Below, piece after piece: positions 8,015-32,612 of a stretch of DNA of 64,000 bases. Under the pieces are notes generated by a model. That model did no database searches and was not told the DNA's origin. It worked only from the letters and a program-made list of their open reading frames with translations. The DNA is from a virus (lineage: Duplodnaviria; Caudoviricetes). The translations under genes were made by a program, and so were the position numbers. Location: positions 113,487 to 177,486 of the IMG/VR virus record IMGVR_UViG_2873737359_000001. One strand, given 5' to 3'. The first letter of the stretch is position 1. Every line of letters begins with the position of its first letter.

Positions 8015-8347
8015 ATGAAAACTATTTATGGTCATTTTGATGACAAACAATTTGAGAATTATAAGGTAAGGTTACATAAAGAATTATTTTGGTTACTTTT
8101 ATATAAAGATCCGAAAACAAAAGACGAATTTAATAACATTGATTTCGAAAAATATTTTATTAATTTGATGAAACGGATTGACGGATTAAATACACTTCTC
8201 TCCTATCCTGTTGAAATTATATCTATAATGTCAACTCTTCAGGCTGCTTTAAATGAAACACGAGAAGAAAATTTTGATTATCAATCTTACAGAAAATTAG
8301 TATTAGATGCACATTCGTTAGTAGATAAAATTAATGATAGGAGTTGA
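8015..8347 (+). CDS. Hypothetical phage protein
   Basis: Abuts both neighbouring genes (translational coupling). Confidence 0.65.
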   Translation: MKTIYGHFDDKQFENYKVRLHKELFWLLLYKDPKTKDEFNNIDFEKYFINLMKRIDGLNTLLSYPVEIISIMSTLQAALNETREENFDYQSYRKLVLDAHSLVDKINDRS

Positions 8348-8352
8348 TTTTA

Positions 8353-8868
8353 ATGATTACTGCCGACATGTACAGATCGCATCTTAATTCATATGGCAGT
8401 AATTTAGCACAGGTTAAACAAAGCCAATCTAATATGGTTGTAAATAGTGCCTTTACTGCGGATGCACAATATAAAAGAGTTTATATATTAACAAAAGATG
8501 GATGGAAATTCGAGGATGCAAAGTTTCAAAAGCACGCGAAATATTCTATTCTTAAAGATGCCGTTGATTATTACGTTCAGTTTCGCCCAAAAGTACATTA
8601 CTCTGTTGGTAGTTATCTTTTTATTCCGGACGATACTGCTCACGAAATTAATATTCACGGTAAAGACTTAGAACATCCATTATCGCTTCCAGAAGATCAA
8701 ATCACTCAATTGTGGTTTATAGTCGGTCGTGATTATGATCCATCTTTTGTTAGATATAATGTTTTGCAATGCAATTGGAAATTTAAATGGATATACAACA
8801 ATAAGTTATATACATGCTGGGGTGCGAATAGATCGGCCAACAGCTACACAAGCGGTAAATGGACAGAT
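8353..8868 (+). CDS. Putative head-closure/completion protein, exon 1
   Basis: AGGAG RBS then ATG 8353. Reads ...NSYTSGKWTD and then enters group I intron sequence. Junction uncertain by a few nt. Confidence 0.65.
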
Positions 8869-10385
8869 TTTGTATGGATTTTCTGTACATACATGGTCCG
8901 CTGTAAAGGGAAACCTTGACAGCGCATTCTTTCGGATATGCTGGAATTAGGCTGTACACATAGCCGTCCTAAAGCTTACTAAACTACAACATAATGATGG
9001 AATATGCATAAGTGTGAATGTCGCGAAAGCAGAAAAAATTAGTAAGATGGTATAAGCTGAAACAAAAGCTTTTATATAATAAAAGTGCTAAGTACTACTA
9101 CAATGGGAAATCAGCAGGGAATAGTTTAACTAGGCTTGCCCTCATCGACTATCGGTTGAAATACCGTTAGGGAGAAGTCTCCCGAAGTGAAAGACTCCTA
9201 AGTGCTTAATTGCATATGGTGAATGATATAGTCAGTGCTTACATGAAAGTGTAAGAAAAGTTGTTTATAAATTAATATTGAATATTAAGACCAGACAGCG
9301 GGTAGCTCCTGTTTTGTTATACCTCCTATATAACAATTATGGTCTTTTTATTATACATAAATTTAGGAGGAATTTTTATGTCAAAATTATCAGTACAAAA
9401 AATATTTGAAAAGCACGGAGACGAAATTATTAATCTTCGGAAAAATGGTATGCAGATGCAAGAAATTGGTGAAAAATTTAATTTGAAAACTCAAACTGTG
9501 AGCAGCTTTTTGCGAAGAAATAATATAAGAGTTCGCGGATTAAGGAATGAAGAAACAGAAAATAAGATAGTTCAATTATATAATGATGGAGTGTCTATGA
9601 GAGAAATTGCTTCAAATTTTCATTTTACACAAGGAACCGTCAGAGATATACTTGTTAATCATGATGTGCATATCAAAACTAATTCTGAATCACATAGGAT
9701 ATATGATATAAACGAAAATTATTTTAATCAAATAGATACGCCTAAAAAAGCTTATATTTTAGGATTACTATATGCAGACGGTAATAGAAGTAGCAGATCT
9801 AACACAATTTCAATTCGTCTTCAAGAAAGTGATAAAAACATTTTAGAAAATATTAAAAAAGAATTGAATGCAGAAGTGCCATTACGATTTATTGATTATT
9901 CTAATGATTCTAAAAGACAAAACCAGTTTCTACTAGCAATAAGTAATGAACAAATTGCAAAAGATTTATATAAATACGGCATTGTTCCAAGGAAAGAATT
10001 TAAATTAACCTTTCCTAATTGGTTAGATAATAATCTCCTATCTCACTTTATAAGAGGATATTTAGACGGTGATGGTTTTATTTCAAATAACCCGAAAGAA
10101 AAACGAGCCAATATTACCGGAACCGAAAATTTGTTACTTGGAATTAAAAATATTTTAGAAGAACAATTAAATATACATTTTAGTATATATTCACCTCATA
10201 ATAAAGATACTAATACTAGAACGTTAGCTGTAGCTGGAGGGAATCAAGTTAAAAAATTTTTGGACTACCTTTATAAAGATGCTGATTTATATATAGAAAG
10301 AAAATACGACAGATATTATAATATGTACTGTGCTTAATATAAACAATCCTTATTTAAAGTAACGAATTAAATAAGTAACATTCAG
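8869..10385 (+). ncRNA. Group I intron (IA2-like) with homing endonuclease in the P9 region
   Basis: P element ATATGCTGGAA (~8936), Q element AATCAGCAGG (~9109), P7 GACTAT 9147-9152 / ATAGTC 9228-9233, P7.1 and P7.2 hairpins, P9 GAAA hairpin. TTGTTTATA 9261-9269 / TATAAACAA 10338-10346 encloses the ORF. Ends in G at 10385. Confidence 0.85.
9378..10337 (+). CDS. LAGLIDADG homing endonuclease with N-terminal HTH repeats
   Basis: Motifs AYILGLLYADG and HFIRGYLDGDG; TAGGAGG RBS at 9364-9370. Confidence 0.9.
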   Translation: MSKLSVQKIFEKHGDEIINLRKNGMQMQEIGEKFNLKTQTVSSFLRRNNIRVRGLRNEETENKIVQLYNDGVSMREIASNFHFTQGTVRDILVNHDVHIKTNSESHRIYDINENYFNQIDTPKKAYILGLLYADGNRSSRSNTISIRLQESDKNILENIKKELNAEVPLRFIDYSNDSKRQNQFLLAISNEQIAKDLYKYGIVPRKEFKLTFPNWLDNNLLSHFIRGYLDGDGFISNNPKEKRANITGTENLLLGIKNILEEQLNIHFSIYSPHNKDTNTRTLAVAGGNQVKKFLDYLYKDADLYIERKYDRYYNMYCA

Positions 10386-11081
10386 GAATATTCATCTGCG
10401 CTTGACAATTTGACATCAGCGTGGATGCCAGACATTTATTATGCTTATGGTAATAACTTATACGAACTTGGATTAGATGATAATAGAACTGTGATGCATG
10501 AACAACGTTTCATGCTCTCAAATAATATTCTTGATCCTAAAGTATATCAGGTTACGAAAGTAACAGATCTTAATCCTTCTGGAGTAATAAAATACTCTAT
10601 TAAGCAGGATGAATTGGATAATAAACGGGATAATGTAGAATTACAAATATGTGATTATTATACGGACTCCGGTGATCAAAAAACTGAGACTATACAAAAG
10701 CCTCAAATGATGATTACGGAATCTCAAATCAGGTGGTTAACTCTTAATGATGATGGAGAATTAGAACCTATCTATGATAAATCTAAGCAATGTCTATATC
10801 TAGGAAAGAATTCTTATTTCGAATACAAACTCCCATATCAAGACTTAAAATCCGAATGGAATCTAAGTGTATATGATAGAAAAAACGAATTATCTGACGA
10901 AGACAAATCTTATTATGAAGGATTAATGAAAATAACAGTTATGGATAATGTAACTATTTCAATTAAGCCGGGAAAGGCTAATAGTCTTATTGGTAAAAGA
11001 TTTATTCTTTCAGCGACAGATAATAATGGCGATAACCACTCTTCTATCGTACTGGAGGTGGAAAAATGGTCAGAGACATAA
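10386..11081 (+). CDS. Putative head-closure/completion protein, exon 2
   Basis: In-frame continuation EYSSALDNLTSAWMP with no RBS of its own. Joined product ~403 aa. Confidence 0.65.
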   Translation, partial: EYSSALDNLTSAWMPDIYYAYGNNLYELGLDDNRTVMHEQRFMLSNNILDPKVYQVTKVTDLNPSGVIKYSIKQDELDNKRDNVELQICDYYTDSGDQKTETIQKPQMMITESQIRWLTLNDDGELEPIYDKSKQCLYLGKNSYFEYKLPYQDLKSEWNLSVYDRKNELSDEDKSYYEGLMKITVMDNVTISIKPGKANSLIGKRFILSATDNNGDNHSSIVLEVEKWSET

Positions 11082-16374: not shown

Positions 16375-19300
16375 ATGAGTGATATGAAATTAGGAGAGAT
16401 TAGTCTTGATCCTGTTGCTGAAGCAATTGTTAAAGGGGTCAATATGAAAGCAAATTCTAAGGCTAATAAAGAATTTCAAAAAACAATAGATCAAATAAAA
16501 GAAGGCACAGACATGCCTGTTAGATTTAACCCCAATACTTCCGAATTTGATAAAGCTAAAAAAGAAGCTGAGAAACCAATAAAGACTCCGGTTAAATTAG
16601 AGACAGAAAATGTTGATCTCCCGCTTCTAGGGAAAACTCCTGTAAAATTATCAATTGATAAAGATAGTCGAACTGCTATTAAAAAAACTTTAAAGGATGC
16701 AGAAAAAGCATCAAAAAGTTTAATTGATTCTGCGGCAAGAACTGTAAAAAAAATAGGTTCCGCAAATTATTTAGAAGAACTTACAAAAAATGAACGACAA
16801 GCAATTTCTACTGCAGTGTCTAAAGTAAAACGTAACCATCCTGAAATTTCAGATGATAGGTTAAAAACATTTGAGCAAAATCTTATATTAGATAGACGAG
16901 CAAAAAAAACACATGAAACATTATCAGAAAATTTCAAGCTTCCAGATTCTTCTTCTAAATCATATGGACAAGAGATGTATGAAGCTGCTATTGCAGCTGC
17001 AAAGATTCAGGCTGCTGTTAAAATCAGAGAAGATCTTCATAACGATGAAAGCTATACACAATTTTTATCAAAAAATGATAGAAGCAAAAGTTATAATGGC
17101 AACACTCTTAAGATACCAGGAAAATTTATAGATCAAATACAAACTGGTTTGTACGAACATTTAGGGGTTACAGAATTAGGCAATGCTCTTACTTCTGGAA
17201 ATAGCTGGACTGGAATACAAGATCGTATGGTACGATCAATTGATTCTTTTAGTGCAGGTTTAACAGATGTTATAGAAGCTTCTATTCCAAAGACTTCTTC
17301 TGGAGATCGTATCACTAAGAAATTTCAGAAAAGAATAGATTCTGCTGTTAAAATGGCTGTTGGTATGTCTGTAGATGATGCCATTAATTATTTAACAGGG
17401 AAAAGGGGCATTAAAGAAAATAAAGAGGCGTTATCTTTATTAGGAAAGAAAAAAAATGGAGAATATGAATATTCTGTTGATGATATACTTGGCATATTAT
17501 CAGAGAAGGCGCCAACAGGTGGATCTGAAAACGGTGGCACTAATTATAAAGGATTTAGTCAAATTTTAGGAGCCTTACAGGTATATAACAGAAACGGAGC
17601 GTCTGGATTAAGTGCAAATCGTATTGAACGATTATCAGAACTTGTTGATGTAATTACCTCTACTTATACAGGCAATGATGGTTTCGTTGATTATGATGCA
17701 AAAACCGTAATTAAGTCAATCGATACAGCATTAGATAAAGTTCAGGACGAAGCCGAAAAGGCGTCAAAAGAATCAAAAGAACAACCTAAAGTAGCGGAAA
17801 AACCTAAATCTAAAAAATCTAATGAGAAGTCCTCTTCTACAACTTCTAAAAAAGAATCTGCAAAGACTGAGACTAAAACGGTTGAAGAAAAAGAACCGGG
17901 AAAAATTGAAAAATCTAAAGAAGAATTTGTTTCTTCTACTCCAAATAAATCCCATCGTAAAGTAGTAAAACCTCCTAAAATCTTAAAGGGCAATTCTCAA
18001 GCCAGAGATGTGAATGGTAATTTATTATCTTGGGATGGACAAGATTGGAAAATAAAATCAAATTCAGAATCCGATTCTTTATGGGAAAATATACCAGAGA
18101 ATCCGTCTCCTGAATTTTTAAAAAGATTTGAAAGAGCTAAAAAATTTACCAAAAATCATCCTGAATTATTTGGTCCAGATGCTCTCCCTATAGAATTTGA
18201 TGAGGAAGCTTTTTTGAAAGATTTTTTGAAAACATTGAATGATGCTCCCCCTATAAAATTTGATGAGGAAGATTTTGGGAAAACAATGAATGATGGAGTA
18301 AGTGTTAAAGTTCCAGATGCATCCAAAGATATAAAAGATGGAGCAAAGCAAATAAAACAGGCGTCAGATACAATAGAAAAAACTTCCAAAACCGATCAAA
18401 AAATATCTGATGACAAGAAAGAATCTTCTGATTCTATAAAACCAAAAACTCATTCATCTTCACATTCGAAAAAAGGAAATAATCAACAAGATGACGATCA
18501 AGATCAAATAAATACTGGAAATGATGTAAAAAAAACAAAAAAAGAATTTACATCACAATATAAAGAAGCCATTTCTGATATTAAAGATCTAGGGAAAGCA
18601 TATGTTAATCTTCAAAATGCTATTTTAAATCCAACAGGTAAAACTTATAAAAAATCAAATGGAAAAATAGGATCTTCATATGAAGATTTTATTGATCAGC
18701 AATTATCTGATATTGAAAATAAGGAAAATCGAATTAGGTCATTTAACAAAAATGTTCATAATCAAAATAAGACAAATCCTTCTCAAATTAAGGATCAGAA
18801 TATTTTTGATAGTTATGAGAAAGAATTGCAAGATAGTCAGTTACAGCAAAGTCAATTTGATGATAATCTAGTTAGTCTTATGAGATCTGCATACGAAGTT
18901 CGTAATAATGCTCAAAATGAAATACTTAAAACGATTGGCAGTCCTACACGAAAAGGAGAAATTAATTTAGAAAAATTTGCAAAGCAGCAAGAACGCTTTG
19001 CTAAAAGTGATTATGTGTACAATTTGCTTAGTGATAAAGTAAGCAAACGTAAAGGAAATGCATATCAAGAATCTGCCATATCTGATATTGCGGAATCTTC
19101 AAAAACAGATAGAGAGTCTATTTTACAAACGAATTTTGGTACGTTGTCTCAACAAATCAATGATTATGTATCATCTATTGAAAGAGCTGGACGCGCAAGC
19201 GAACAATTCAAATCAGATTTTGGAAAAATACAATCTGATTTGAATAAAAATGATCCTTCTCAATTTAAAGATACTGAATCAGGTATGAAAGAATATCTTG

Positions 19301-21153
19301 ACTTTATGACAGATATTCGCAGTCGTTTTAACAGCAATAAAGATTTTTATGAAAATGGCATCGGAAAATCTACTTTAGATTATGAAGCTATCAAAAATAA
19401 ATTAATTAAAGCAGAAAACTATAATACTAAAACAAATGAGTATAAATCAAAAGTTTTTGGTTTTCAAGAACAATGGGATGGTATTATAGATAGTTACAGT
19501 TCCGGAGATATAGAGAAAATGAAAGAAGCGGAACATGCCGCCACTTCTCTTATATCCACAATGAACGACTTTTATAAAGAATCATCTAAAAGTGATAAAT
19601 ATAAAAAGACAACGTCGAAAGGTACTTTAGTAGAAGACACTGTAGGTAAGGTTCAAGATATTAATGATGCAAAACAATCATTAAAACAATTTACCGATGA
19701 AATGAAATTAACTAATAAGGTGTCAGAAACCATTGATACATCAACAGGTAAGATCACACAAAAATTCAAAGATGATTATTCTGGAAATATAATTACTATC
19801 ACAAGTAATATTGACGAACTTAACAATGCTCTTAGAACAACTCAAAAAATTCAATCATCCGGTTCAGGTGGTTCAGGCGGCTCTCTTCTGGGAGGATTAA
19901 AAAATCTCGTATCCGGCAACTTTAAATCAATTGTTGGTGAAATAGGAAGTAGCGTAGCTAATGTTCAAATTCTTGGCCAAGCTTTCCAGCAAATGAAAGA
20001 TGGATTTAATACATTCCTTGATTTCAATAAAGGATTAACTAATATCAGTTATACCATGGATATGAGCAAAGAACAGCTCTCATCTCTCGGATCATCTGCT
20101 GTTGATATGGCCAAAGATCTTTCTATGTCCTTGGATAATACCATGGATATCTATCAGATCTATGCAAATATGAATACTACACCTAAGGAAATCCAGGAAA
20201 CAGCGAAGCCTACTGCTATTCTGAGTAACTTAAGTGGTGTAGATGCTTCTACCGCCGCCGATCAGGTACAGGGTATTCTTCAGCAGTTCCATATGCTTGA
20301 AGATGGCTCTACTACTGCTGCCGATGCTTCCATGCACGTAGTTGATGTATTGGATAAGATTTCCGGAAATATCGGTATGGATTATGCTAAGGGAATCAAG
20401 GTTATTTCTGATGCGGTACAGGCTTCCGGTCAGGTAGCATTTGATGCTGGAATGAGCTACGAGCAGTTAGCTGCTGTATCTGCTAAAGTAGCTGAAAGAA
20501 CTCGTGAAGATGGATCTTCTATTGGTAATGCAATGAAGACTATCATAACGAGAATCAGTAAAGTTGGATCTATGCCAGAATATGCTGCAGATGTAAGTAA
20601 TGAAGATCTTTCCCAGGCTTCAGAGTCTTTACATAAAGTTGGTGTAGAAGTCTATAACACAGATGGATCATTCCGTGATCTTGATACAATCCTTTCAGAA
20701 CTTAATTCTAAATGGGACGGATTGACAGACGCTCAAAAAGCAAATATTTCATACAATGTTGCAGCCACGAGGCAAACTTCAAAATTCAAGAATATACTTG
20801 AAGCTTGGACAGATTCTATGAATTTGGCAAACGAGGCCACTACAACCAGTGGTAATGCCGAAGCCAATCAGGAAAAATATATGGAATCTTTCTCCGGAAA
20901 GATCCAGGCAATAAAAACTCAGATGGATGAGTTTTGGTTAAACTTCTATAATTCAGACCAGGTATCTGGAGCTTTAGATTTTGTACAAGGTTTAACCGAA
21001 GGATTTACAGGGCTTGAAGAAGCCATTGGTCCAATTCCTACTCTAATCACGGCTGTATTCTCAGCATTGACCGTAAAAAATGCAGCAACAAAAGGATTAG
21101 ACTTTTTAGTAGGGAAAGATGGACAAGCAAGTGGACTTGCAAATGCCGTGGGT
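16375..21153 (+). CDS. Tail tape measure protein, exon 1 (contains TP901-family core)
   Basis: Core motifs such as GSSIGNAMKTIITRI and DGSFRDLDTILSELNSKW. Ends at the predicted 5' splice site GGU; the ORF-track stop TGA is the first intron codon. Confidence 0.88.
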
Positions 21154-21615
21154 TGACCCAAATTCGGGGTTACAGTTATTATTTCCGATTAATAATGAGC
21201 CTATCTACATAAAGATCGTGAGATCAATGTGTGGAGACGAGCGGCAATAAATAACTAGAGGATTAAAACGTTGAAACCTGCTATTCTATAATATAGTGAA
21301 TCGGGCGAAAGCCTGCAGGTAACGCACGTGCCAACCTGGTTAACGTCTAGTAATATGTGAAACATTAGTAACAATTGCGGAAGCAATGATGAGGGAAGCA
21401 TATGAATAATCAGGAAGTGTAGAGAGCGCACCCTTCCTCGGAGTATATACAAAATCCATATATGTATATGCTTTTAATGAATGTGCCTATAGTAATGATG
21501 GTGAAATCCATCCAGTACTCTTCTACTGTTATTTTAAATGAAGAAAAATATTTTTAGGAAGTGCCCCTATAAAAGAGGCACTGTTATTAAAGGTTTTATC
21601 CTTTAATCCTCGGGC

Positions 21616-21637
21616 AAAAAAAATGGTCCCCGACCGT
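21616..21637 (-). terminator. Terminator of the minus-strand cargo gene
   Basis: On the minus strand, ACGGTC-GGG-GACCAT followed by a T run. Confidence 0.5.
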
Positions 21638-21638
21638 C

Positions 21639-21839
21639 TCACTTGCCGCCCGATGCAACGCTTGCAAAGTCACAATTAAAATTAGCCGAGATCTCATTTA
21701 TGCTAACTTTAATATAGAAACTTAAAGCTTCTGGATTATGTTTGAGTATCATCCAGATAGCTGCAAGAATCAATATTGAAATTATAGCTAATATAATTAT
21801 TGACCCTACAAGCTTAATTCGTTTTGAATTATTGTCCAT
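21639..21839 (-). CDS. Small single-TM membrane protein (intron cargo)
   Basis: GGAGGTG RBS, hydrophobic segment LVGSIIILAIISILILAAIWMIL, own terminator right after the stop. Confidence 0.65.
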   Translation of the reverse strand: MDNNSKRIKLVGSIIILAIISILILAAIWMILKHNPEALSFYIKVSINEISANFNCDFASVASGGK

Positions 21840-22070
21840 ATTTCACCTCCTGTCTGCAGTGTTTATGGCACTGCCATAGGAGACAAATTGACTCTAACCA
21901 AAACGTCAGAATCATGATGACTTCTGATAATTTACCACCTACACTTTTCTGAAGGTATTATGTAAGAAATATATAGTGCACTTATATATTCTACACATGG
22001 TAAATTATACCAATTATATTCGAAATGTATAGTCAGAACGTTTGATCTGGTTAATATAAAAGTGCATCAC

Positions 22071-22110
22071 AAATAGAGCAGGACGATTGATCCTGCTCTA
22101 TTCTATTTTT
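22071..22110. terminator. Strong hairpin inside the intron
   Basis: AATAGAGCAGGA / TCCTGCTCTATT 12-bp stem followed by a T-rich tail. Confidence 0.55.
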
Positions 22111-22138
22111 CTCCAATATCCTCCAAAGGAGATTTCAC

Positions 22139-22321
22139 ATGAAAAAGTTATATAAATCTAATCTAAAATTTAATCTTAACATACTATGTAAGATAATTAA
22201 GTTTGAACTGAAAATAATTACAAAGCATAAACGACTCGCAGAAAAGTGGTTTGAAAAGATCACAACACTAGAATGTGAGTCTATATTTGAGAAAATGGAC
22301 GAGCGGAAGAAATATCTATAA
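22139..22321 (+). CDS. Small basic hypothetical protein (intron cargo)
   Basis: AAGGAG RBS before ATG. Confidence 0.45.
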   Translation: MKKLYKSNLKFNLNILCKIIKFELKIITKHKRLAEKWFEKITTLECESIFEKMDERKKYL

Positions 22322-22399
22322 TTTGCGCCACTTCTCTTTGTCTATTACTTCTTCCCGATTCTTCTATTTTCCTCTTCTACCTGAAAGGACTAAATACCC

Positions 22400-22645
22400 A
22401 TGAACAAATTTCAACGAATTTTACAACATTATGGACAAATCAAAAATTCTACTACTGGACCGTATACAAAACCTTACGAGTTCAGAAATATGACTGATTA
22501 CGAATGGTACAAAAAATGTTGTTCTGATATATCACAAAACTATGGGATACTGCTCAACCAAAATCAATCATATTTAAGCTATTGGTTTCATAGGAAAAAG
22601 GCAGATGTAAAATTGTTATTGTCTATTGTTGTTTCCTCCATTTAG
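22400..22645 (+). CDS. Hypothetical protein (intron cargo)
   Basis: GAAAGGA RBS. Confidence 0.45.
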   Translation: MNKFQRILQHYGQIKNSTTGPYTKPYEFRNMTDYEWYKKCCSDISQNYGILLNQNQSYLSYWFHRKKADVKLLLSIVVSSI

Positions 22646-22662
22646 AAAGGTGGCGATCCATT

Positions 22663-22896
22663 ATGCAGACAAACCACAAGGTTCTTTCTACTGTTATAGA
22701 TATTACACAGTTACTTTGCAAAAATTCTTGTACATATGATGAAGCGTATAAAATATTAAATATGGTTACTGCCGAATTTAAACAGCAGCAAGAAAATTTA
22801 GAATACGCAACATACGATGACTATTTTGCAGGTACAAAAACTGATGATGTAAGTAATAAAGTCATTGCACCATTAAATCATGCGGGTGGTTATTGA
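22663..22896 (+). CDS. Hypothetical protein (intron cargo)
   Basis: GAAAGGTGG RBS. Confidence 0.55.
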   Translation: MQTNHKVLSTVIDITQLLCKNSCTYDEAYKILNMVTAEFKQQQENLEYATYDDYFAGTKTDDVSNKVIAPLNHAGGY

Positions 22897-22898
22897 TC

Positions 22899-23468
22899 TT
22901 ACTTACTTCCTGGTTTCCAACGATATCCGCACTTCTGACAAAGATTATGCTTTTTGCTAGATCCCCAAAATCCTGTTAAAAGTGAATATCCGGATTCTTC
23001 CGTTGTCACTGACGTTGATCCGCACTTTGGACAGCGAACGGTTTTGGACGGATCTGGAATATCGGCAGTGTTGAATTCGAAGTATTGGAAGTTGTGGTCG
23101 ATACAGGTTGTAATGAATTTGTAGGCAAGATGAGCTGTATTATTTTGTGCATACCAATTAAAACGTTCTCGAATAAGCCGAGTTATTTTAGTAGTAACAG
23201 ATAGATATTTTTGCTGTCCTTCAGGGCAATTAACATTGTCAAAATTTTTAGGGTTATTAAAGCGTTGAAAATTTTCTTTATAGAATCCTTTTTGAGCTTC
23301 GTTCGATAATGAATTATATAACTCTTTAAAATGTGTTAAATCGTATTCTACTCCATCGACCAAACAAATATTTTCTTTATGAATATTGCTCAAAGGGAAA
23401 CCACAGTGTATACAAGCTGGAGCTTTATCAGAGACATTACCGCCACATTCAGGACATTTAATTAACAT
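22899..23468 (-). CDS. Double zinc-ribbon protein (intron cargo)
   Basis: N-terminal CPECG...CIHCG and C-terminal CPKCGS...CQKCG motifs; GGAGGG RBS. Confidence 0.8.
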
Positions 23469-23493
23469 ACCTTTATCCCTCCATTTTCTTTTA

Positions 23494-23522
23494 ATTTTAT
23501 CATACTATAGTCATTAAGTAAA
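23494..23522 (-). promoter_or_regulatory. Putative sigmaA promoter for the zinc-ribbon gene, straddling the 3' splice site
   Basis: Minus strand TTTACT-N17-TAAAAT with an extended -10 TG. Confidence 0.5.
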
Positions 23523-26500
23523 ATCGGAAATCTAAAAAAAGCGATAAATTCAAAAGATACGGATACGGTGAAAAGTGTTCTTAGCGGAATGGATCTTGAT
23601 ACTGCTGGTAAATGGTTTGGACGTTTAAATCAGGAAAATGGAAAAACTATAATTTCTGAAGATATTTTTTCAGATATATTTTCACAATTATTTGGTGAAT
23701 TAGGCGAAGACACTATCAAAAAAGCCATTGCTAAAGGCACTGCTTCAAAAGGTTTCAAAGGTGCACTCTCTGCTGGTATTAGCGGTTTTGCTGGTGGATT
23801 AGCTGGTATTGGAGAAAGTATTGGTACTGTAGGTACAGGATTAGTATCATTTCTGGGTTCTATCTGGCCTTTATTAGCAGTTGGTGGAGGAATTTTTGCA
23901 GGTATTAAAGGATACCAGGCATTAAACGATAAATTCACTCTTACTAAAGGAATGGCGGACAAACATTATTCTCAGTCCACACAGGAATATGCAAATAACC
24001 AGTCCGAACTGGAATCCTTGCAGTCTCAGAGAGATACCAACCAAGAGCGTATTTACGAACTCCGGGCCAAAGAAAATCAGTCTCCTGACGAAAAAGCAGA
24101 ATTGAGTCAACTTCAGGAAGAAAATAATCTTCTTGATTCTCAGGTAGCTATAAAAGAAAAGTCTGTGGACGTATCTAAGCTAAAGGCAGCCAATGATGCC
24201 AAAACGAAACTTGAGAAAAAAGGATACCAGAAGAACTATAAAAAGGAAGCTTACGATAATCAAGATAAAACTTCAATCAATGATTTAGATGAAGCTTCTG
24301 AAATGATTGATTATTTAAATCAGCTTAAATCTGAGTACAAAGATCGTGTTCAGAAAATTGCGGATGAAGGTAGAGAACCAAGTTGGATTGAACAGAAAGG
24401 TTTGGATAGCACAAAGAAAAAGATTGACAGTTTGGAATCAGATGTTGCTGATAAGGTAACAGAAATCTCTGACACCGCTAAAAGCATGAAGAACGATGAT
24501 GGATCTCTTATTGATGAGAAATTCAAAGATACTGTTGCTTCTGCTGATGCTGTTGTACAGAAATATCTGAACTCTACAGACTCTACCACAGCCACTTCCG
24601 ATAAGATGAATAACATCTTTGCACTCTCTCAATTCTCAGATCTGAAGGATAAACTCATTGCCGCAGGTAAATCCGGTGGTACAGATGCTATCCAGAAAAT
24701 GATTGATGACACAGACGGTCTTAAAGATGCAATGAATAATGCCGGACTCACTGCGGATGATCTCAAGGATAGTATTATGTCTATAGCAGATCCTGACGCG
24801 AAGAATCTGGAAGGCATCAAGGAGAATCTTGAGGACATATTCGGTAAGGATGGTCTTGGACAGTCTGATTTCTTCAAAGGTAAAACGGATGAAGAGCTTG
24901 AGAACTTCTGGGATTATCTCCAGGACAACAACTATAATCCTAAGCAGATGAACTGGAATGAGGAAACCACTAAGAAAAACTTCGAGGCAGCACAGGAAGC
25001 TAAGAAGAAAACTCCAGAGGAATCTGCCACATTCGCTTCTAAATTCAAGAATGCAGCAGAAGATACTGCTACTGACATTGATACTGTAACAGATAACTTC
25101 CAATCTGACATGAAGAATATCCAGTCTGCTATGGAGTCCGTAACAAACGGTACATTCCAGAATTCTGATATGGCAGATCTGATCCAGCAGTTCCCGGAAT
25201 TAAGTAATGCCAGTGGTGATTTGAAGGATAATCTTCAGGATCTTGCCATGAATAAAGGGGCTGAGGCCATTGGTAAGATCAGGGATTCTGTAAAGGATGT
25301 TACGGACCCGAAGCAGTTAGCACAGGCGGATAAATATGTTCAGAGTATCATGGATACGATGGACATGAGCGATTTTGATGTAAATGAGGCAGACGTTAAA
25401 GACATTGCTACAAAAAACATCAAAAAAAATGCAGATAAGTGGGTTAATAGAGATAACGCATCAAAAAAAGTATCTGAGTTAATGGAAAAATATTCTGGCA
25501 ACGAAGATGCTATGAAGGCCATTGTTCAACTTTCTATGGATCCTTCTATGGCTGATGCCAGTATAGAAGAATGGGAATCTAAGATTGAAGATCAAGAAAT
25601 TCAGATAAAGATTAATGCTGATACCAAAGAATTAGATAACCTTTCTAAATCAATGACCCGTCTTCAGACAGACGCTTCTAATACTCAGACAGATATGAGT
25701 AATAAGTCTGCTTTCAACCAGAAAATAAATAAAGATGATTACGATGCTTTAATTAAAAATGGCGATGCTCAAATTAAGAACTATGACGAGCAAATCGCAC
25801 ATTATAAAAATTTACAGAAAATACTAAAAGAAAACAATATTGATGCAGAGAGCACTGAGCAATGGAAACAATGGCAGGATAATATTGATGCAGCACAGCA
25901 GTCTATAGAGAATATGAAGGCTTCTCAGGCTGAATGGGGCGATGCGATTAAGAATCTTCCTATTACAGATATAACAAATCTGTCAAGTGCTATCACTACT
26001 GCTATGAGCGAAATGCAGAGTGATACCGGATTAACCACAGATAGTGTAAAAAATCTGGCTACACAGTTTAGTGATCTCGGTGATATTAACATTGATAGCT
26101 TATATACTAGAACTGCAAAAGGTTTACAGCTTAATACCGATCGTCTCCAGGATTATATGGAGCAACAGAATGATTTTGTCAATTCTGATTTTGAGAACAA
26201 AGTTAAGGAGCAAAAGCAGATTGTTGAGGATGCTTTTAAAGCATATCAGAATGGGGATCAATCACTCGCAAATTATACTGCAGAGCAGAATGCTCTCGAT
26301 GAATTATTAAATCGTAGAAATCAATATTTCGCACGGTATCAAGAGGCTCAGGAGCAATTTACTGATTTCCAGAAGATGATCAATGCCGAAAACGCAGCTA
26401 ATGCTGGCGACGAATATACCACAGCTAAATCAAAACTCGATGAATTAAAAGAGTTATATGACAACAATCTTATTGGAACTGAAAAGTTTAAAAAAGGTGC

Positions 26501-29500
26501 TGCTTATTTCTCACAAAACGGATTTGAAGATCCAGAAAACTTCATTGAAAATTATAATCATCTCAAAAAGTATTACACCGATGATTCTTCCGGTCCACAG
26601 AAATTCTTAGAGGATTTAAATAAGAAAGGTCTCGCTACATATGAGACTCTTGCAAATGGTCAAAAGCAATGGGCTTATTCATTTAATGATGTCAAAGACG
26701 CTGCTGATCAGATGGGAATGAGATATGAATCATTCCAGTCTATATTAGGAAGACTTTCTGATTATGGTTTTGTGAATAATCTTGTTACTTCTACTCAGGA
26801 TGGAGAACAACAAATTGACGAGCTGACAGATGACCTTATTACAGAGAAAAATAAGCTGTCAAAACTGAAAGCAAATGGAGCCACAGATCAGGCTATTCAG
26901 GATCAGGAAAATGTTGTTGATCAACTTGAATCTAAAATTAGTGGTGTAAATCAGGCAGTAACAGATTATGCTAATGGTGAAACAGACAGAAAAGTTCAGG
27001 ATTTAAAAGAAGCAAAGCAGATTATCAAGGATTCAAAAGAAGCCTATGATGAGGCAATGAAATCTGGCGATACGGATCTCGCTCAGAAACTTCGTAAAAA
27101 TATCCAGGATACTGCTAAAGATAATAACATAGAGTTGACTCCGGAACTAAATATTGATGAGAAAGCTCTTGATAAGCAAATTGACAACTTACAAAGTGAA
27201 GCTCGCGAAAAGAGTGTACAGAAATATAAGGATATCCAGGATCAGCTCCATAATGGACAAACAGAATGGACAGATTCTGAAGATTTCAATGCAGCGGATG
27301 CTATTACCAAATTAGAACAGGCTCAATCAGAAAACGCAGAAGGATTTAATAATCTTGTATCTAATATGAAGAAATATAATCTTTCTGACTTGGAATCTAT
27401 GATTTTTGATAATGGTGCATATGAATCTGAAGATCAAGGTCTTCGCGATATGGAAGATCAGATTCAGGGCTTTGCTGAATCTATAGGACTTACTACCGAT
27501 CAAGCTAATATGCTCGTTCCTATTCTTGAGGCAATGGGTACTTTAGATATATCTCCTAAAGTTGATAATTCAGAGCTTGAAAAGACCGTGACAGATACTC
27601 AGACTGCAGAGCAGACTCTTGAAGAAACAACAGGAAAACAATATAATTTTGATTTTAACACAACAGACCTGGATACTATTCAGAAACAGGTTGATCAAGT
27701 TAAAAAGGATATCGAGGACACTTATCTTAAGCGAGATGAGAACGGCAATGTCATTAGAGACGAAAACGGTATCCCTACTTATGATTATAGTGCTCCTGGT
27801 GCAAAAGAAACAGCTCAGATTTATGATGCTTCTATTAAACAACAGCAACAGGCAGAATATCAAACCTCAGCTTTAGGCCAATCAACATCTTCTGATGAAG
27901 TAGTAAAAGCCGCCCAAGATTATATGACAGCTAAGAATGCAATGGATGTGGAAACACAGAAATATAATCTTGGTATGGAGAACAAGTTACGAGAAGCAAC
28001 GGATAATGCTACCAATGCTATGAATGCATATGCTGAAGTTGCAGATAAAAATGGCAATCCATTAGAAACTGACTTAAAAAATATTGATCCACAAAAACTT
28101 GAAGATCAATTGTTAGGAGTAACTGATAAGGATCTTAAAGTAAAAGTCGAAGCAGATACATCCGATGCAGAAAATGATATTCAAAGTCTTGAAAATCTCG
28201 AAGGAAGTTCTATTACTATCAATGCAGACGTTTCTACAAATGGTGGTGTTGAAGAATTACAAGATTCTCTTGCTTCTATTCCTCAAGGAGTATCTACTAC
28301 TGTGACATGTGATGTAGAAGGCGAGTCTGATGTAGATAATTTGGAGTCTTCTATGGAGTCTATCCCGGATAATACTCCTGTTACAATCGATTGTCACGTT
28401 GAAAATCAAGATCAACTTGATCAGATTAACCAAAAGGCAGACGAACTTAATGCCAATGGAAAACAAATAAAAATCAACGCTACTGTTGGAGAAGTAAAAA
28501 CTGATGGAGCAACTTCTAATACGCCTATAAATGTAAAAGGCAATGTCACAGAAGTTTCAGGAAACCCCTCTGGCACTGTAGATATAAAAGGCAACGTCAC
28601 TAAAATCTCAGGAAACCCTTCAGGTACAGTCGACGTCAAGGGTAATGTTACATCTGTTACAGGTAATCCATCAGGAACAGTAAATGTCAAGGGAAACATC
28701 ACAGGTATAACAAACGAAGATGCAGTAAAAGGTAAGGCTAATTATACAGTAGGACATTCACCAAAGAAAGTTCCTGATGCAAGCGGAAAAGCTAATTTTG
28801 GCCTTGGAAAACATCCCGAAAAAGCCCCTGATATTTGGGGTACAGCTCATTATACTGGGGATTTCCCAACATCAGCTCCCACCCTTTCTGGTACTGTAGT
28901 ATATCACGCACAAATTCTAGGAGCACCTTCTGGCGCAAAATCAGTTGCAACAGGTACAATGCTCTCTCCTGCTCATGCTTCAGGTACGGCTTATAATGTT
29001 TTAAATATGAAGCGACTCTCTCCTGCTCATGCCGGAGGAAATGTTGCTATCAAACATAATGAACAAGCTCTTGTAAATGAAGTAGGTACAGAATCTATTG
29101 TTCGTAATGGTGTATGGTCACTTCTTCCAGGCGGAGCACATCTTGAGAATTTAAAACAGGGAGACATTGTATTCTCTGCTTCTCAGACAAAAGATCTTCT
29201 TGAACATGGACGTACAGCTGGACATGCACGTGCTTATGCAGAAGGCACTGCTTCTCTCACACATGCTTATGCTCGTTCTTCTGCTGCTAATGGCGGTGGA
29301 GCTTTTGGCGGAGTTAGAACAAGAACTACCACTTCAAACCAGTCATCTAGTTCTAATAATTCAAATAATAATAATGCACTTCAAACAATCGCAGATAATA
29401 CAGATTCAATTGCGGGAAGTTCACAGCAAACAGCAGACAACACTTCGAATTGGGAAGATCCATGGAAGAATGCAGTAGACTGGTTCGAACGGTATAGCAC

Positions 29501-32500
29501 CAGAATAGATAATAAGTTGGATCTAAATAGTGCTATTTCTGATAATTATCAAGGAAATAAATCTAATAAGAAAAATCCATTTAGTATTGCTACAAAAAAT
29601 AGCACTTTAGATTATTCTATTGATACAATCAAAAAAGAAATTCCAAATTATCAAAAACAACGGGATTATTATGCTTGGCAAGCTGAGGCTTATGGAGATA
29701 AAATTGGTCTTTCTCAGGATCTACGTAAATTAGTTCAGGAAGGTAAAATCCAGGATATCGAAATTTACGATGAAGATACAAAATCTAAAATTGAAGCATA
29801 TCAGACATGGTACGATAAAGTTCATAGTGTTGAATCTTCTATTGAGGATCTAAAATCTAAAGAAGCGGATCTTTGGAACCAAAAATTCAGTAATATTACT
29901 GACCGTTATGATGCATTAAAAGGTATTTACTCAGGAAAGAATGATATTCTTAGTGCAACAAATGATTATCGAAAAGAAACAGGACAATCTGAATCTTATA
30001 AATCGGTATACGCAAATAATATTAGAGCGCAAAGAACAAATCAAATCAAGCAGAATGCTATTACTGCTGAGGAAATCAAAAAATATCAGGCAGAGTTAAG
30101 AAGTCTTGGAAAAGAATATGGCACTCAGTCTACTATTTATAAGGAAGCGCAGTCTACTCTTCTTGATCTAAATAAGGAATATCAAGAAGGGAAAACAGCT
30201 GTAAGAAATTTCACAAACCAGCTTAATGAGTTAAAATTAAAAGATCTTCAAAATGTAATTGATAGATATGATAACGCTTCTGATAAACAATCTTCTTATC
30301 GCGACTGGAAAGATGCTACACATTTCAAAGGAACATCCGGTGTTACACAGAATGATTTACTAGAGGGCATTAAAACTAATGACAAACTTATTGATGCCAT
30401 ATCTGCTAGAAGGGATGAGGTTCAGCGTCAAATGCTTGGACTTTCCACGAGTTCTGATGATTATCGAACATTGGCAGACGAGCTTGCACAATTAGACGAA
30501 AGGACTGCAAACATTGCTAAAAACAATGCAGAATTACGTCAGCAAGCAACTCAGTTACGTACAGACCAATATGATAAAGCAATAGACAAACTTGAGCGTA
30601 TCACAACTGACTGTGAAAATATTCAGAGTATGATGGATTCAGACACATTTTTATCTGATGACGGATCTCTTACTACAAATGGTCTTACTAATATTGCTTT
30701 AGAAAATCAGTCTATACAGACTAATCAGAAAAAAATTGCCACATTAAAGCAGGAATTAGCAGAAGTTCAACAAATGTATGACAATCATTGGATGACCGAG
30801 GAACAATTCTTATCTCAGAGCCAACAGATTATTTCTGATATTAATTCTGCGGCGAAAGATATTTCTTCAAGCCAACAAAATTTAATCGATACATATATTA
30901 ATCAGATTACAAAAGAGAACGAATATTTACAAGACAATATCTCTAAACGTAAAGAAGCTCTTGAGGCCAAAAAGGATTATTATGATTATGATAAGACTAT
31001 TAAGAATAAGACAAAAGATATCAATGTAATCAAAGCACAGATTGCTGCTCTTGAGGGAACAACAAACGCCGTTGCGAAGGCAAAATTAGAGCAACTTAAA
31101 GCAGACCTTGTAGATAAGCAAGAAGATCTCGAAGATACCAAGTATGACCATAAGATTGATATGGAATCTAAAGGCTATGATAATCTTGCAGATCAGGCAG
31201 ATAAGGCTTTGGATTCTACTACACAGGCAGTTAAAACCAATGCCGATATGCAAAAATCTGTTATCGATAATATGCTTAAGGAAGTACAAGGCAATTACAA
31301 GGATGTATATGATAATATTACAAACATTGTAAAAGATTCTGGTGCTCAAATATCTAAAGAATTTGATAGCATTCTTAAAAATATTGGAAACGGCAAAGGT
31401 AATTTTACTGTTACTGTTACAAGTAAAGCTAAATCTTCTGTAGGGAAAACAAAAATTTCTAATGCTCCTGGAGTTACTGGACGAGGAAAGACTTCCGGAG
31501 ATAAGAAAGTAAGACGAACTGCTAAAGACGGAAGCTCTGCAAATAACGCTGCCGATGAAAATGGTACAGATCGACAGGCAACACAAGCTGTTACTGCTAC
31601 TCCGAAATCTATATCTATAGGTGTTGGAAATAGCGCGACTGTGAAAATTGGATTTAAGCCGACAAATGCTACCTATAAAGATTTTACATACGAAGTTTCA
31701 AAAAAAGGAATTGTTTCAATTTCTAAAGGTAAATCTTCTATTACTGTAAAAGGCACGGCGGTTGGCAGTGTAAAAATTACTATCAAAGGTCATGGCGCAG
31801 GATGTAAATCTACGACTGTTTCTGTAAAAGTCTTAAAAGATGGAGCCAAACATACAACAATTGCAAAAAACGTAGCAAAATCTATGAGAACATCATTAGA
31901 CACCAATGATGTTACTAAGATTCTAAATGCTACAAGCGGTAAAAAAACGGTAAAAGAAGTTGAATCATACGTAAAACAATATGTTATTCAAAATAAAAAT
32001 AATAATGTAACAAAAACTGCATTATCTAAGTGGTTTAAAGCTCTTCCAGCTTTTAAAGGTGATGTTTCAAAAGTTACTGGTATCGTTACAAAGCATTTAG
32101 CCCAAAAAGGCAAAAAAGCTACCGTTGCTGATATTCAAAAGGCTGCATCTATTCTTGGATATAAGGATTATAAAAATGTGGCCAAATGGAGTACTACTCA
32201 GAAAAACGCACTCGTATCTAAATTAAAAGGATATGGATTTGCTAATGGTGGAATCATTCGTAATCTGATTCCTGCTAATATGAGTACATTATTTGGTGAT
32301 GCTATTATGAAAAATGGCGATACAGGTCTTATATCTGCTCGACAGGGAGAAACTGTATTAACAGAGAAGTTCACAAATATGCTCGAACCAACTGTGACTG
32401 CTATGAACGCATTTACAGATATGTACCAGAAAATGAGCGCTCCTAATGTAAGTAGTGTTCCAACTCAGCAACAAAATATATTCCAGCCAGAGTATAATAT

Positions 32501-32612
32501 TAATATTACTGGAATGGATCTAAGCAAGGCTACTGAACTGAAAAAGGTTATTCGAGGGGAACTCAATAATCATGATAAAGCACTTGCAAAAGAATTTAAA
32601 AAGTTCAGTTAA
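23511..32612 (+). CDS. Tail tape measure protein, exon 2
   Basis: Frame is open from 23511 (SLSKIGNLKK...) with no convincing RBS before the ORF-track start GTG 23568. Gly/Ala-rich hydrophobic segment, long coiled coils, ALVNEVGTE and GFANGG motifs typical of TMP C-terminal halves. Confidence 0.88.
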   Translation, partial: SLSKIGNLKKAINSKDTDTVKSVLSGMDLDTAGKWFGRLNQENGKTIISEDIFSDIFSQLFGELGEDTIKKAIAKGTASKGFKGALSAGISGFAGGLAGIGESIGTVGTGLVSFLGSIWPLLAVGGGIFAGIKGYQALNDKFTLTKGMADKHYSQSTQEYANNQSELESLQSQRDTNQERIYELRAKENQSPDEKAELSQLQEENNLLDSQVAIKEKSVDVSKLKAANDAKTKLEKKGYQKNYKKEAYDNQDKTSINDLDEASEMIDYLNQLKSEYKDRVQKIADEGREPSWIEQKGLDSTKKKIDSLESDVADKVTEISDTAKSMKNDDGSLIDEKFKDTVASADAVVQKYLNSTDSTTATSDKMNNIFALSQFSDLKDKLIAAGKSGGTDAIQKMIDDTDGLKDAMNNAGLTADDLKDSIMSIADPDAKNLEGIKENLEDIFGKDGLGQSDFFKGKTDEELENFWDYLQDNNYNPKQMNWNEETTKKNFEAAQEAKKKTPEESATFASKFKNAAEDTATDIDTVTDNFQSDMKNIQSAMESVTNGTFQNSDMADLIQQFPELSNASGDLKDNLQDLAMNKGAEAIGKIRDSVKDVTDPKQLAQADKYVQSIMDTMDMSDFDVNEADVKDIATKNIKKNADKWVNRDNASKKVSELMEKYSGNEDAMKAIVQLSMDPSMADASIEEWESKIEDQEIQIKINADTKELDNLSKSMTRLQTDASNTQTDMSNKSAFNQKINKDDYDALIKNGDAQIKNYDEQIAHYKNLQKILKENNIDAESTEQWKQWQDNIDAAQQSIENMKASQAEWGDAIKNLPITDITNLSSAITTAMSEMQSDTGLTTDSVKNLATQFSDLGDINIDSLYTRTAKGLQLNTDRLQDYMEQQNDFVNSDFENKVKEQKQIVEDAFKAYQNGDQSLANYTAEQNALDELLNRRNQYFARYQEAQEQFTDFQKMINAENAANAGDEYTTAKSKLDELKELYDNNLIGTEKFKKGAAYFSQNGFEDPENFIENYNHLKKYYTDDSSGPQKFLEDLNKKGLATYETLANGQKQWAYSFNDVKDAADQMGMRYESFQSILGRLSDYGFVNNLVTSTQDGEQQIDELTDDLITEKNKLSKLKANGATDQAIQDQENVVDQLESKISGVNQAVTDYANGETDRKVQDLKEAKQIIKDSKEAYDEAMKSGDTDLAQKLRKNIQDTAKDNNIELTPELNIDEKALDKQIDNLQSEAREKSVQKYKDIQDQLHNGQTEWTDSEDFNAADAITKLEQAQSENAEGFNNLVSNMKKYNLSDLESMIFDNGAYESEDQGLRDMEDQIQGFAESIGLTTDQANMLVPILEAMGTLDISPKVDNSELEKTVTDTQTAEQTLEETTGKQYNFDFNTTDLDTIQKQVDQVKKDIEDTYLKRDENGNVIRDENGIPTYDYSAPGAKETAQIYDASIKQQQQAEYQTSALGQSTSSDEVVKAAQDYMTAKNAMDVETQKYNLGMENKLREATDNATNAMNAYAEVADKNGNPLETDLKNIDPQKLEDQLLGVTDKDLKVKVEADTSDAENDIQSLENLEGSSITINADVSTNGGVEELQDSLASIPQGVSTTVTCDVEGESDVDNLESSMESIPDNTPVTIDCHVENQDQLDQINQKADELNANGKQIKINATVGEVKTDGATSNTPINVKGNVTEVSGNPSGTVDIKGNVTKISGNPSGTVDVKGNVTSVTGNPSGTVNVKGNITGITNEDAVKGKANYTVGHSPKKVPDASGKANFGLGKHPEKAPDIWGTAHYTGDFPTSAPTLSGTVVYHAQILGAPSGAKSVATGTMLSPAHASGTAYNVLNMKRLSPAHAGGNVAIKHNEQALVNEVGTESIVRNGVWSLLPGGAHLENLKQGDIVFSASQTKDLLEHGRTAGHARAYAEGTASLTHAYARSSAANGGGAFGGVRTRTTTSNQSSSSNNSNNNNALQTIADNTDSIAGSSQQTADNTSNWEDPWKNAVDWFERYSTRIDNKLDLNSAISDNYQGNKSNKKNPFSIATKNSTLDYSIDTIKKEIPNYQKQRDYYAWQAEAYGDKIGLSQDLRKLVQEGKIQDIEIYDEDTKSKIEAYQTWYDKVHSVESSIEDLKSKEADLWNQKFSNITDRYDALKGIYSGKNDILSATNDYRKETGQSESYKSVYANNIRAQRTNQIKQNAITAEEIKKYQAELRSLGKEYGTQSTIYKEAQSTLLDLNKEYQEGKTAVRNFTNQLNELKLKDLQNVIDRYDNASDKQSSYRDWKDATHFKGTSGVTQNDLLEGIKTNDKLIDAISARRDEVQRQMLGLSTSSDDYRTLADELAQLDERTANIAKNNAELRQQATQLRTDQYDKAIDKLERITTDCENIQSMMDSDTFLSDDGSLTTNGLTNIALENQSIQTNQKKIATLKQELAEVQQMYDNHWMTEEQFLSQSQQIISDINSAAKDISSSQQNLIDTYINQITKENEYLQDNISKRKEALEAKKDYYDYDKTIKNKTKDINVIKAQIAALEGTTNAVAKAKLEQLKADLVDKQEDLEDTKYDHKIDMESKGYDNLADQADKALDSTTQAVKTNADMQKSVIDNMLKEVQGNYKDVYDNITNIVKDSGAQISKEFDSILKNIGNGKGNFTVTVTSKAKSSVGKTKISNAPGVTGRGKTSGDKKVRRTAKDGSSANNAADENGTDRQATQAVTATPKSISIGVGNSATVKIGFKPTNATYKDFTYEVSKKGIVSISKGKSSITVKGTAVGSVKITIKGHGAGCKSTTVSVKVLKDGAKHTTIAKNVAKSMRTSLDTNDVTKILNATSGKKTVKEVESYVKQYVIQNKNNNVTKTALSKWFKALPAFKGDVSKVTGIVTKHLAQKGKKATVADIQKAASILGYKDYKNVAKWSTTQKNALVSKLKGYGFANGGIIRNLIPANMSTLFGDAIMKNGDTGLISARQGETVLTEKFTNMLEPTVTAMNAFTDMYQKMSAPNVSSVPTQQQNIFQPEYNINITGMDLSKATELKKVIRGELNNHDKALAKEFKKFS
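28533..28706 (+). repeat. 51-bp (17-aa) tandem repeat in the TMP, ~3.5 copies
   Basis: VKGNVTEVSGNPSGTVD-type units start at 28533, 28584, 28635 and 28686. Confidence 0.85.

Follow-up and report, generated by a model that had tools for sequence, protein, structure and literature searches.

Is the tape-measure locus of a large tailed phage made of two genes, as gene callers have it, or of a single gene split by an intron? The question is raised by IMG/VR virus record IMGVR_UViG_2873737359_000001 (Duplodnaviria; Caudoviricetes), of which we analysed a stretch of 64,000 nucleotides (nt; positions 113,487 to 177,486 of the record; hereafter the window). An open reading frame (ORF1, 16375–21156, 1593 amino acids (aa)) contains, toward its C-terminal end, a tape-measure core domain of the TP901 type (TIGR01760, 3e-26; PF10145, 4.6e-22) and finishes with the codons GCC GTG GGT, then TGA, while a downstream frame (ORF2) is open from 23511 to 32612, immediately 3' of a TAG at 23508–23510. 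Excision of 21154–23510 (2357 nt) joins the two in frame as ...GLANAVG/SLSKIGNLKK... (1593 + 3033 = 4626 aa; here and below a slash marks the junction). This join, for which a first-pass annotation had invoked a cryptic group I intron with passenger genes, is exact. Our results indicate that 21154–23510 is very probably a group I intron, whose exons would be spliced into one 4626-aa tape-measure protein (TMP). The locus is laid out as follows, all on the + strand:

16375–21153, +: tape-measure exon 1, 1593 codons (from the ORF list; TIGR01760, PF10145)
21154–23510, +: predicted group I intron, 2357 nt, with an in-frame stop TGA at its start and a terminal G at its end
23511–32612, +: tape-measure exon 2, 3033 codons plus stop, including a P10 strand (23511–23516) and a clamp strand (23522–23531)

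We compared both frames with 120 uninterrupted TMP homologues of 2800–5000 aa. In 105 of them, an ORF1-like core and an ORF2-like region occur in one polypeptide and in that order, the ORF2-like part (ORF2 residues ∼1980–2640) lying ∼1000–1800 residues after the core; one example, P0003, matches the two parts with E = 9e-152 and 5e-58. The two frames are therefore two halves of a protein that is single elsewhere. As the first-pass annotation anticipated, automated pipelines do split this TMP into two proteins. A distant contiguous protein (P0146) was also tried as a guide to the junction and was dropped because of its ambiguous alignment to both exon ends.

The relatives of the locus are ∼45 IMG/VR contigs of 20–250 kb that share the same tail module and were collected by protein-guided scans. 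All of them (∼45/∼45) contain an insertion of 1587–3608 nt at the identical codon boundary: the ORF1-like frame closes with ..GTN GGT/TGA or TAA CCCAAA in every relative (with ..GCC GTG GGT throughout the window clade), and the ORF2-like frame opens with ..G/TCATTANNNAAAATCGGRAA. When the contigs were scanned with a 32-nt core motif, it occurred once in each and nowhere else; the window's own genome likewise has a single copy. No intron-minus allele occurs in this set, i.e. all ∼45 loci with the exon junction carry the intron, which looks fixed and vertically inherited in the phage family rather than mobile. In 50,697 phage records, BLAST returned no match for either the core or the N-terminus of exon 2, and for the exon-1 C-terminus only distant tape-measure proteins. 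No relative of exon 2 is present in sixty related bacterial genomes, and among species-representative genomes a scan picked up just one contig, which is metagenome-assembled. In two close relatives exon 2 has only 715 codons (L096, 5001–7148) or 1039 codons (L097, 5001–8120), with a holin gene soon after, versus 3033 in the window; TMP length 3' of the intron is therefore very variable.

Conservation over the first ∼350–390 nt of the insert, of which ∼350 nt can be aligned among the relatives with hardly a gap, far exceeds that of the flanking protein, whose identity is ∼60% before the insert and ∼40% after it. These first ∼390 nt are predicted to fold as a group I core, in which U21153 pairs with G21199 in P1. 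The elements of the core, and those that reach from it to the distant 3' splice site, are:

21154–21545, +: ribozyme core, with a P1 loop hairpin, P2, P3, P4–P5–P5a–P5b, P6–P6c, P7, P8, P9 and P9.1, conserved in 33 sequences
21144–21148, +: exon-1 strand of an extra exon–intron helix, pairing with CGGCA at 21242–21246, the intron segment after P2
21149–21153, +: P1 exon strand UGGGU, with the U21153.G21199 pair, paired in 33/33
21181–21190, +: intron strand of the clamp (extended P10), AUUUCCGAUU, partner 23522–23531
21193–21204, +: internal guide, with a P10 part (UAAUGA, 21193–21198) and a P1 part (GCCUAU, 21199–21204)
21258–21262, +: P3 5' strand GAGGA, pairing with UCCUC at 21435–21439 in a pseudoknot with P7; 100% paired and invariant
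21424–21430, +: P7 5' strand G[A]GCGCA with bulged A21425, partner UGUGCC at 21482–21487
21488–21494, +: P9.0 5' strand UAUAGUA, directly 3' of P7, partner 23503–23509; the whole helix covaries
23503–23510, +: P9.0 3' strand UACUAUA of a 7-bp helix, plus terminal G23510

The evidence for this fold comes mainly from 33 distinct homologous sequences of the core, over which a group I model was written out with its P3/P7 pseudoknot and its 87 pairs were counted. In this model 99.6% of cells are paired and 19 pairs have changes on both sides, compared with 4.5 +/- 1.6 in 500 shuffles (none of which reaches 19) and 0–3 when the 3' partners are slid by 1–3 columns. RNAalifold, given the same 33 sequences, returns P1, P2, P4–P5 with two side hairpins, a long P6, P7 and P8, with 20 compensatory pairs. 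Compensatory changes are seen in P4, P5, P5a, P5b, P6b and P6c; P6, P6a and P8 are paired throughout, with one-sided changes only. P7, which has a predicted G–C guanosine site, is 100% paired and retains the bulged A; one pair is C:G, A:U or U:A by clade, and the others are invariant. In P1 a single pair shifts from G.U to A-U and the rest is constant. The extra exon–intron helix (21144–21148/21242–21246) is 100% paired as well, with compensatory changes at two of its five pairs (A-U/U-A and U-A/C-G). Taken by itself, the folding energy of the core is only modestly unusual (z = -2.26). The group I reading of the first-pass annotation is thus borne out by conservation and covariation in the ∼45 related contigs.

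Two further observations concern the core. The extra exon–intron helix lies beyond P1, at exon-1 positions -10 to -6, and one of its covarying changes turns Ala to Val. The stem of the P9.1 hairpin (21513–21528) also covaries (U:A to C:G, A:U to G:C), and its conserved loop CUCUUC is complementary to AGAGGA (21257–21262, the P3 5' strand); RNAalifold favours that pairing over P3, and it may represent an alternative fold or a tertiary contact. Regarding classification, P8 (from 21440) abuts P3 (21435–21439) with zero nucleotides between them, so that P7.1 and P7.2 are lacking in our own helix assignment. On this count and by its unusual P7 sequence, the intron differs from IA1 and IA2, the usual phage subgroups.

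The 3' splice site lies 2 kb from the core and is predicted to be held there by four elements, i.e. the 7-bp P9.0, G23510, the 6-bp P10 and a 10-bp extension of P10 (the clamp). P9.0, whose longer strands are TATAGTAATGAT at 21488–21499 and ATCATACTATA at 23499–23509, covaries as a whole helix while its register stays the same: the window clade has UAUAGUA/UACUAUA, L023 has ACUGU/ACAGU, and the main clade, in which 4–7 bp form across seven different tails, has AUGAG/CUCAU. The terminal G is present in every relative despite at least nine different tails upstream of it. P10 (UAAUGA/UCAUUA, 21193–21198 with 23511–23516) has 5–6 bp in all sequences and is followed, after an internal loop, by the second helix AUUUCCGAUU/AAUCGGAAAU, which has 10–12 bp in all sequences. 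Exon 2 is correspondingly conserved: nt 1–6 and 10–21 are 93–100% conserved, third codon positions included, codon 3 in the internal loop varies (S, G, K, N or Q), and conservation falls to 0.3–0.8 from nt 22 onward. The exon strand of the clamp is invariant save for one change, GGA to GGG, that retains a G.U pair. To judge from this pattern, the conserved exon-2 strand is a mark of RNA constraint.

Every coordinate and letter in the first-pass annotation was verified, including TAATGA-GCCTAT (21193–21204), ATTTCCGATT (21181–21190), AATCGGAAAT (23522–23531), the P9.0 strands, G[A]GCGCA (21424–21430), TGTGCC (21482–21487) and the terminal G (23510). The same annotation expected related phages to have a conserved core, variable cargo and covarying P1, P10 and P9.0. 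The core, the cargo and P9.0 behave in this way, whereas P1 and P10 are (near-)invariant.

Following established group I chemistry, free guanosine would attack after U21153 during late transcription, and the freed exon 1 would then attack after G23510 to give ...GCC GUG GGU/UCA UUA AGU..., which would be translated as one protein. The ligated exons would read ...GCCGTGGGT-TCATTAAGT..., and ribosomes on unspliced RNA would stop at the intron-opening UGA. The segment that separates the core from the final ∼11 nt tolerates the gain and loss of genes.

This region holds five ORFs in the window (two on the - strand and three on the + strand, between ∼21546 and 23498), which belong to the following features:

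21639–21839, -: 66-aa single-pass membrane peptide, in nearly all relatives, with no family match
22033–22922, +: window-specific cassette with a hairpin (22072–22102) and ORFs 22139–22321, 22400–22645 and 22663–22896
22899–23468, -: 189-aa protein with N- and C-terminal zinc ribbons, in every relative (phrog_2546, function unknown)
23494–23522, -: promoter-like site of the zinc-ribbon gene, TTTACT-17-TGnTAAAAT (TG-extended), overlapping P9.0, the terminal G and P10

Across the relatives, the cargo measures 1.2–3.2 kb and is mostly antisense to the TMP gene. Two genes are constant. The zinc-ribbon gene adjoins the 3' splice site in all relatives, and its product conserves eight cysteines and little else; the structural model (predicted local distance difference test score, pLDDT, 80.8) matches only generic zinc ribbons and no nuclease fold. 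The membrane-peptide gene appears to have its own promoter (22031–22004) and terminator. Its product keeps a C-terminal motif, C-D/E-F-A-S, across clades, and PADLOC gives it a marginal match only (E 0.0097). The other genes vary. The cassette 22033–22922 is missing from L004, the closest relative, which has only the two constant minus-strand genes, and is thus an insertion; a 77-aa ORF of the cassette is common to the window and L009, and some metagenome contigs lack 22102–22362 (a cargo indel). Other relatives add minus-strand genes of 134, 147, ∼270 or ∼425 aa that belong to DUF6173, to DUF2513 or to no family. No homing endonuclease (LAGLIDADG, GIY-YIG, HNH, His-Cys or PD-(D/E)XK) was recognisable in the cargo of the window or its relatives with Pfam, PHROGs and PADLOC, and no transposase (TnpA, TnpB) or defence family was detected in the cargo.

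The first-pass annotation described the intron as a slot that carries passenger genes instead of a homing endonuclease. The slot itself and the missing endonuclease agree with our comparison, in which cargo length and gene content differ between constant ends. The term passenger fits the variable extras only: the cargo is not random, with the zinc-ribbon and membrane-peptide genes constant and a promoter at the 3' splice site. A predicted sigma-70-type minus-strand promoter is conserved in all tails, as ATGACA-17-TATAAT/TACAAT, often TG-extended (e.g. L008 6199–6227). Its -35 box ATGACA spans the splice junction in most clades (intron -2 and -1, exon +1 to +4); the window clade has the TTTACT-17-TGnTAAAAT promoter (23522–23494) in its place.

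The window and its relatives contain further interruptions. A second, canonical group I intron (8920–10410) lies 12 kb upstream and carries a LAGLIDADG gene at 9339–10337 (PF14528, 6e-13); it appears to split ORFs 8344–8919 and 10410–11081. Four relatives have extra ∼1.6-kb insertions inside exon 1 (L024 6771–8386, L033 6765–8371, L049 6540–8298 and L004 2345–3997), at two core-domain sites that are uninterrupted in the window. These insertions encode sense-strand ORFs of 304–413 aa with a GcrA-like helix-turn-helix or a DUF4379 treble-clef zinc finger, and are probably additional introns with endonuclease-like genes. In the metagenomic contig L097 (3100–3232), a deletion fuses TMP core-domain coding to the P9 region, the exon-1 end and most of the ribozyme being gone; the variant is either truly broken or a product of misassembly.

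Several observations weigh against a single spliced gene. P3, P1 and P10 are (near-)invariant, as is most of P6 and P8, so that covariation is neutral for them. In P9.0, the L006/L052 clade shows weak or register-shifted pairing, and a U-U mismatch adjoins the terminal G of L096. A contiguous ...VG-SLSKIG... protein is absent among 152 retrieved homologues, i.e. no intron-less allele was found there, which leaves the junction without confirmation from DNA comparison; a look-up of RNA runs containing the stretch returned none, and no joint across 21153/23511 was found in contigs from one possibly-RNA and three DNA runs. The Infernal-type search with a group I model that the first-pass annotation had suggested came back empty: Rfam, at gathering and at lax thresholds, gave no group I match at this locus in the window, in the 421-nt core (even at E <= 10) or in ten related loci. 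This negative carries little weight because the canonical LAGLIDADG intron of the same window, used as a control (9063–9255), scores just 22.1 bits with RF00028, below its threshold of 50 bits.

Other points against a single spliced gene concern the expression of the locus, and each leads to a different account of it. Most relatives have an ATG (one a GTG, one a TTG) right before the exon-2 TCA, where gene callers start the protein, so independent initiation is possible there. One could therefore hold that ORF1 and ORF2 are translated independently into two tail proteins and flank a gene island, and that the structured RNA is a non-splicing relic or a regulatory element. The annotation of two proteins, the possible ATG/GTG-SLSKIG start of ORF2 in most relatives and the missing Rfam match all favour this account. 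Yet a TAG replaces that ATG in the window clade, and a Shine–Dalgarno sequence precedes exon 2 in none of the 13 distinct tails (0/13), nor is there one at GTG 23568, while most window genes have AAAGGAG or GGAGG at a distance of 5–12 nt. Two other features explain the start-like triplet: P9.0 with the terminal G beside it, and the -35 box ATGACA on the minus strand. A relic would moreover lose its U.G pair, terminal G, P10 and clamp, and a P9.0 that covaries with a changing 3' tail, and the uninterrupted homologues unite both parts. We consider two separate proteins quite improbable. Still less credible, to the point that we give it hardly any weight, is a decaying gene in a defective prophage with a coincidental in-frame join: the L097 deletion, with TMP coding fused to the P9 region, shows that broken variants exist, but the frames are intact over 1593 + 3033 codons, the same arrangement recurs in dozens of viral contigs of 90–180 kb, and selection, both purifying and compensatory, clearly maintains the structure. 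An intein, translational bypass and a group II intron were also considered and rejected; the 2.4-kb insert has stops in all frames and the hallmarks of group I, and contains no reverse transcriptase or domain-V-like element of a group II intron.

The remaining difficulty lies within the intron. The hairpin 22072–22102, a 12-bp stem with a T tail on the + strand between the core and the 3' splice site, is terminator-like, and convergent minus-strand transcription is predicted across the intron; both could reduce full-length precursor in this prophage. The intron might accordingly be real while most pre-mRNA stops at the hairpin, so that splicing either needs antitermination or runs in trans, with a core transcript and a second tail/exon-2 transcript joined by P9.0, P10 and the 10-bp clamp. 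In favour of this variant are the stem with its T-rich tail, the place of the hairpin in the cassette 22033–22922 that L004 lacks, and the long-range helices, which join the core to the 3' end by > 20 bp. On the other hand, the long-range helices are equally long in relatives without a strong + strand terminator and are thus not an adaptation to it, no promoter-like site stands out for an exon-2 transcript, and read-through of terminator-like hairpins is common in phage late operons. We regard antitermination or trans-splicing as unlikely, and a group I intron spliced in cis from one late transcript as the far better account of the locus.

The overlap of promoter and splice site, seen in every clade, allows a bolder proposal, which we put forward as speculation and think unlikely: that the intron is more than a tolerated insertion, namely a fixed docking site for accessory genes that are expressed in lysogeny from a signal within the splice site itself, so that cargo expression is coupled to tail-gene silencing in one 30-bp element. 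Minus-strand transcription of the cargo would then produce RNA complementary to the intron tail and complexes colliding with late transcription, and in the prophage state the splicing or completion of leaky tape-measure transcripts could be blocked.

In brief, four aspects of this intron are new: (i) an uncultured phage family has a divergent ribozyme lineage fixed at a single site; (ii) the cargo is variable and mostly antisense, with constant zinc-ribbon and membrane-peptide genes; (iii) the cargo promoter shares nucleotides with the splice-site signals; and (iv) the P10 extension is unusually long. Since pipelines split the gene and Rfam is blind to the intron, a family of large gut and wastewater phages is mis-annotated at its tail gene, and the alignment of the core could seed a new covariance model. 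The intron would provide a stable and evolvable site for accessory genes within an essential structural gene, with cargo opposed to the direction of its host gene. The combination of a 7-bp P9.0, P10 and a clamp of 10–12 bp suggests a natural way to reach a splice site 2–3 kb from the core, an arrangement relevant to engineered introns with large inserts.

The first-pass annotation was not aware of any description of such an intron. In general terms there is one, as group I introns in prophage TMP genes (PMC2504315) and the non-endonuclease cargo of IStrons (PMC3984707) have already been published. In prophages of the Bacillus cereus group, the tape-measure genes contain the group I introns TMP-IVS1, -IVS2 and -IVS3 at three sites (Tourasse and Kolsto 2008, PMC2504315), some without a complete homing endonuclease gene (PMC2504315), and introns are also known in other phage structural genes (PMC3706429; PMC4299906). 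The present intron resembles TMP-IVS in being a group I intron in a prophage TMP gene, at conserved spots of the gene and with several sites per gene. Unlike TMP-IVS, which are typical IA1/IA2 introns related to known phage introns, it has no P7.1/P7.2 and a non-standard P7, no Rfam match or similar DNA in the 50,697 phage records, and a multi-gene cargo of 1.2–3.2 kb that is mostly antisense.

IStrons are group I introns with an IS200/IS605 element in their 3' end (PMC3984707, PMC4227781); the 3' end of their group I core bears ∼2 kb of cargo other than an endonuclease (PMC3984707). The intron described here shares this plan, with the core 5', ∼1–2 kb of non-endonuclease cargo 3' and a distant 3' splice site. 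It differs in that TnpA and TnpB are absent and the cargo is mostly antisense with its own promoters. It also occurs as a single copy per genome and always at one site, and so gives no sign of transposition. In its gene content it recalls phage morons, independently transcribed accessory genes that are likewise small, have a promoter and terminator to themselves, often run opposite to the late operon and vary between relatives. By contrast, morons lie between structural genes, whereas here the genes sit inside a coding gene, would be made harmless by the intron, and have a promoter that overlaps the splice site. In the T4 nrdD (sunY) intron, the ORF lies downstream of the catalytic core and encodes a sense-strand homing endonuclease. 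Our intron shows the same order, with the core first, a long coding stretch next and a 3' splice site set by P9.0 and P10, but it has no endonuclease, its genes are antisense and its P10 is extended by 10–12 bp.

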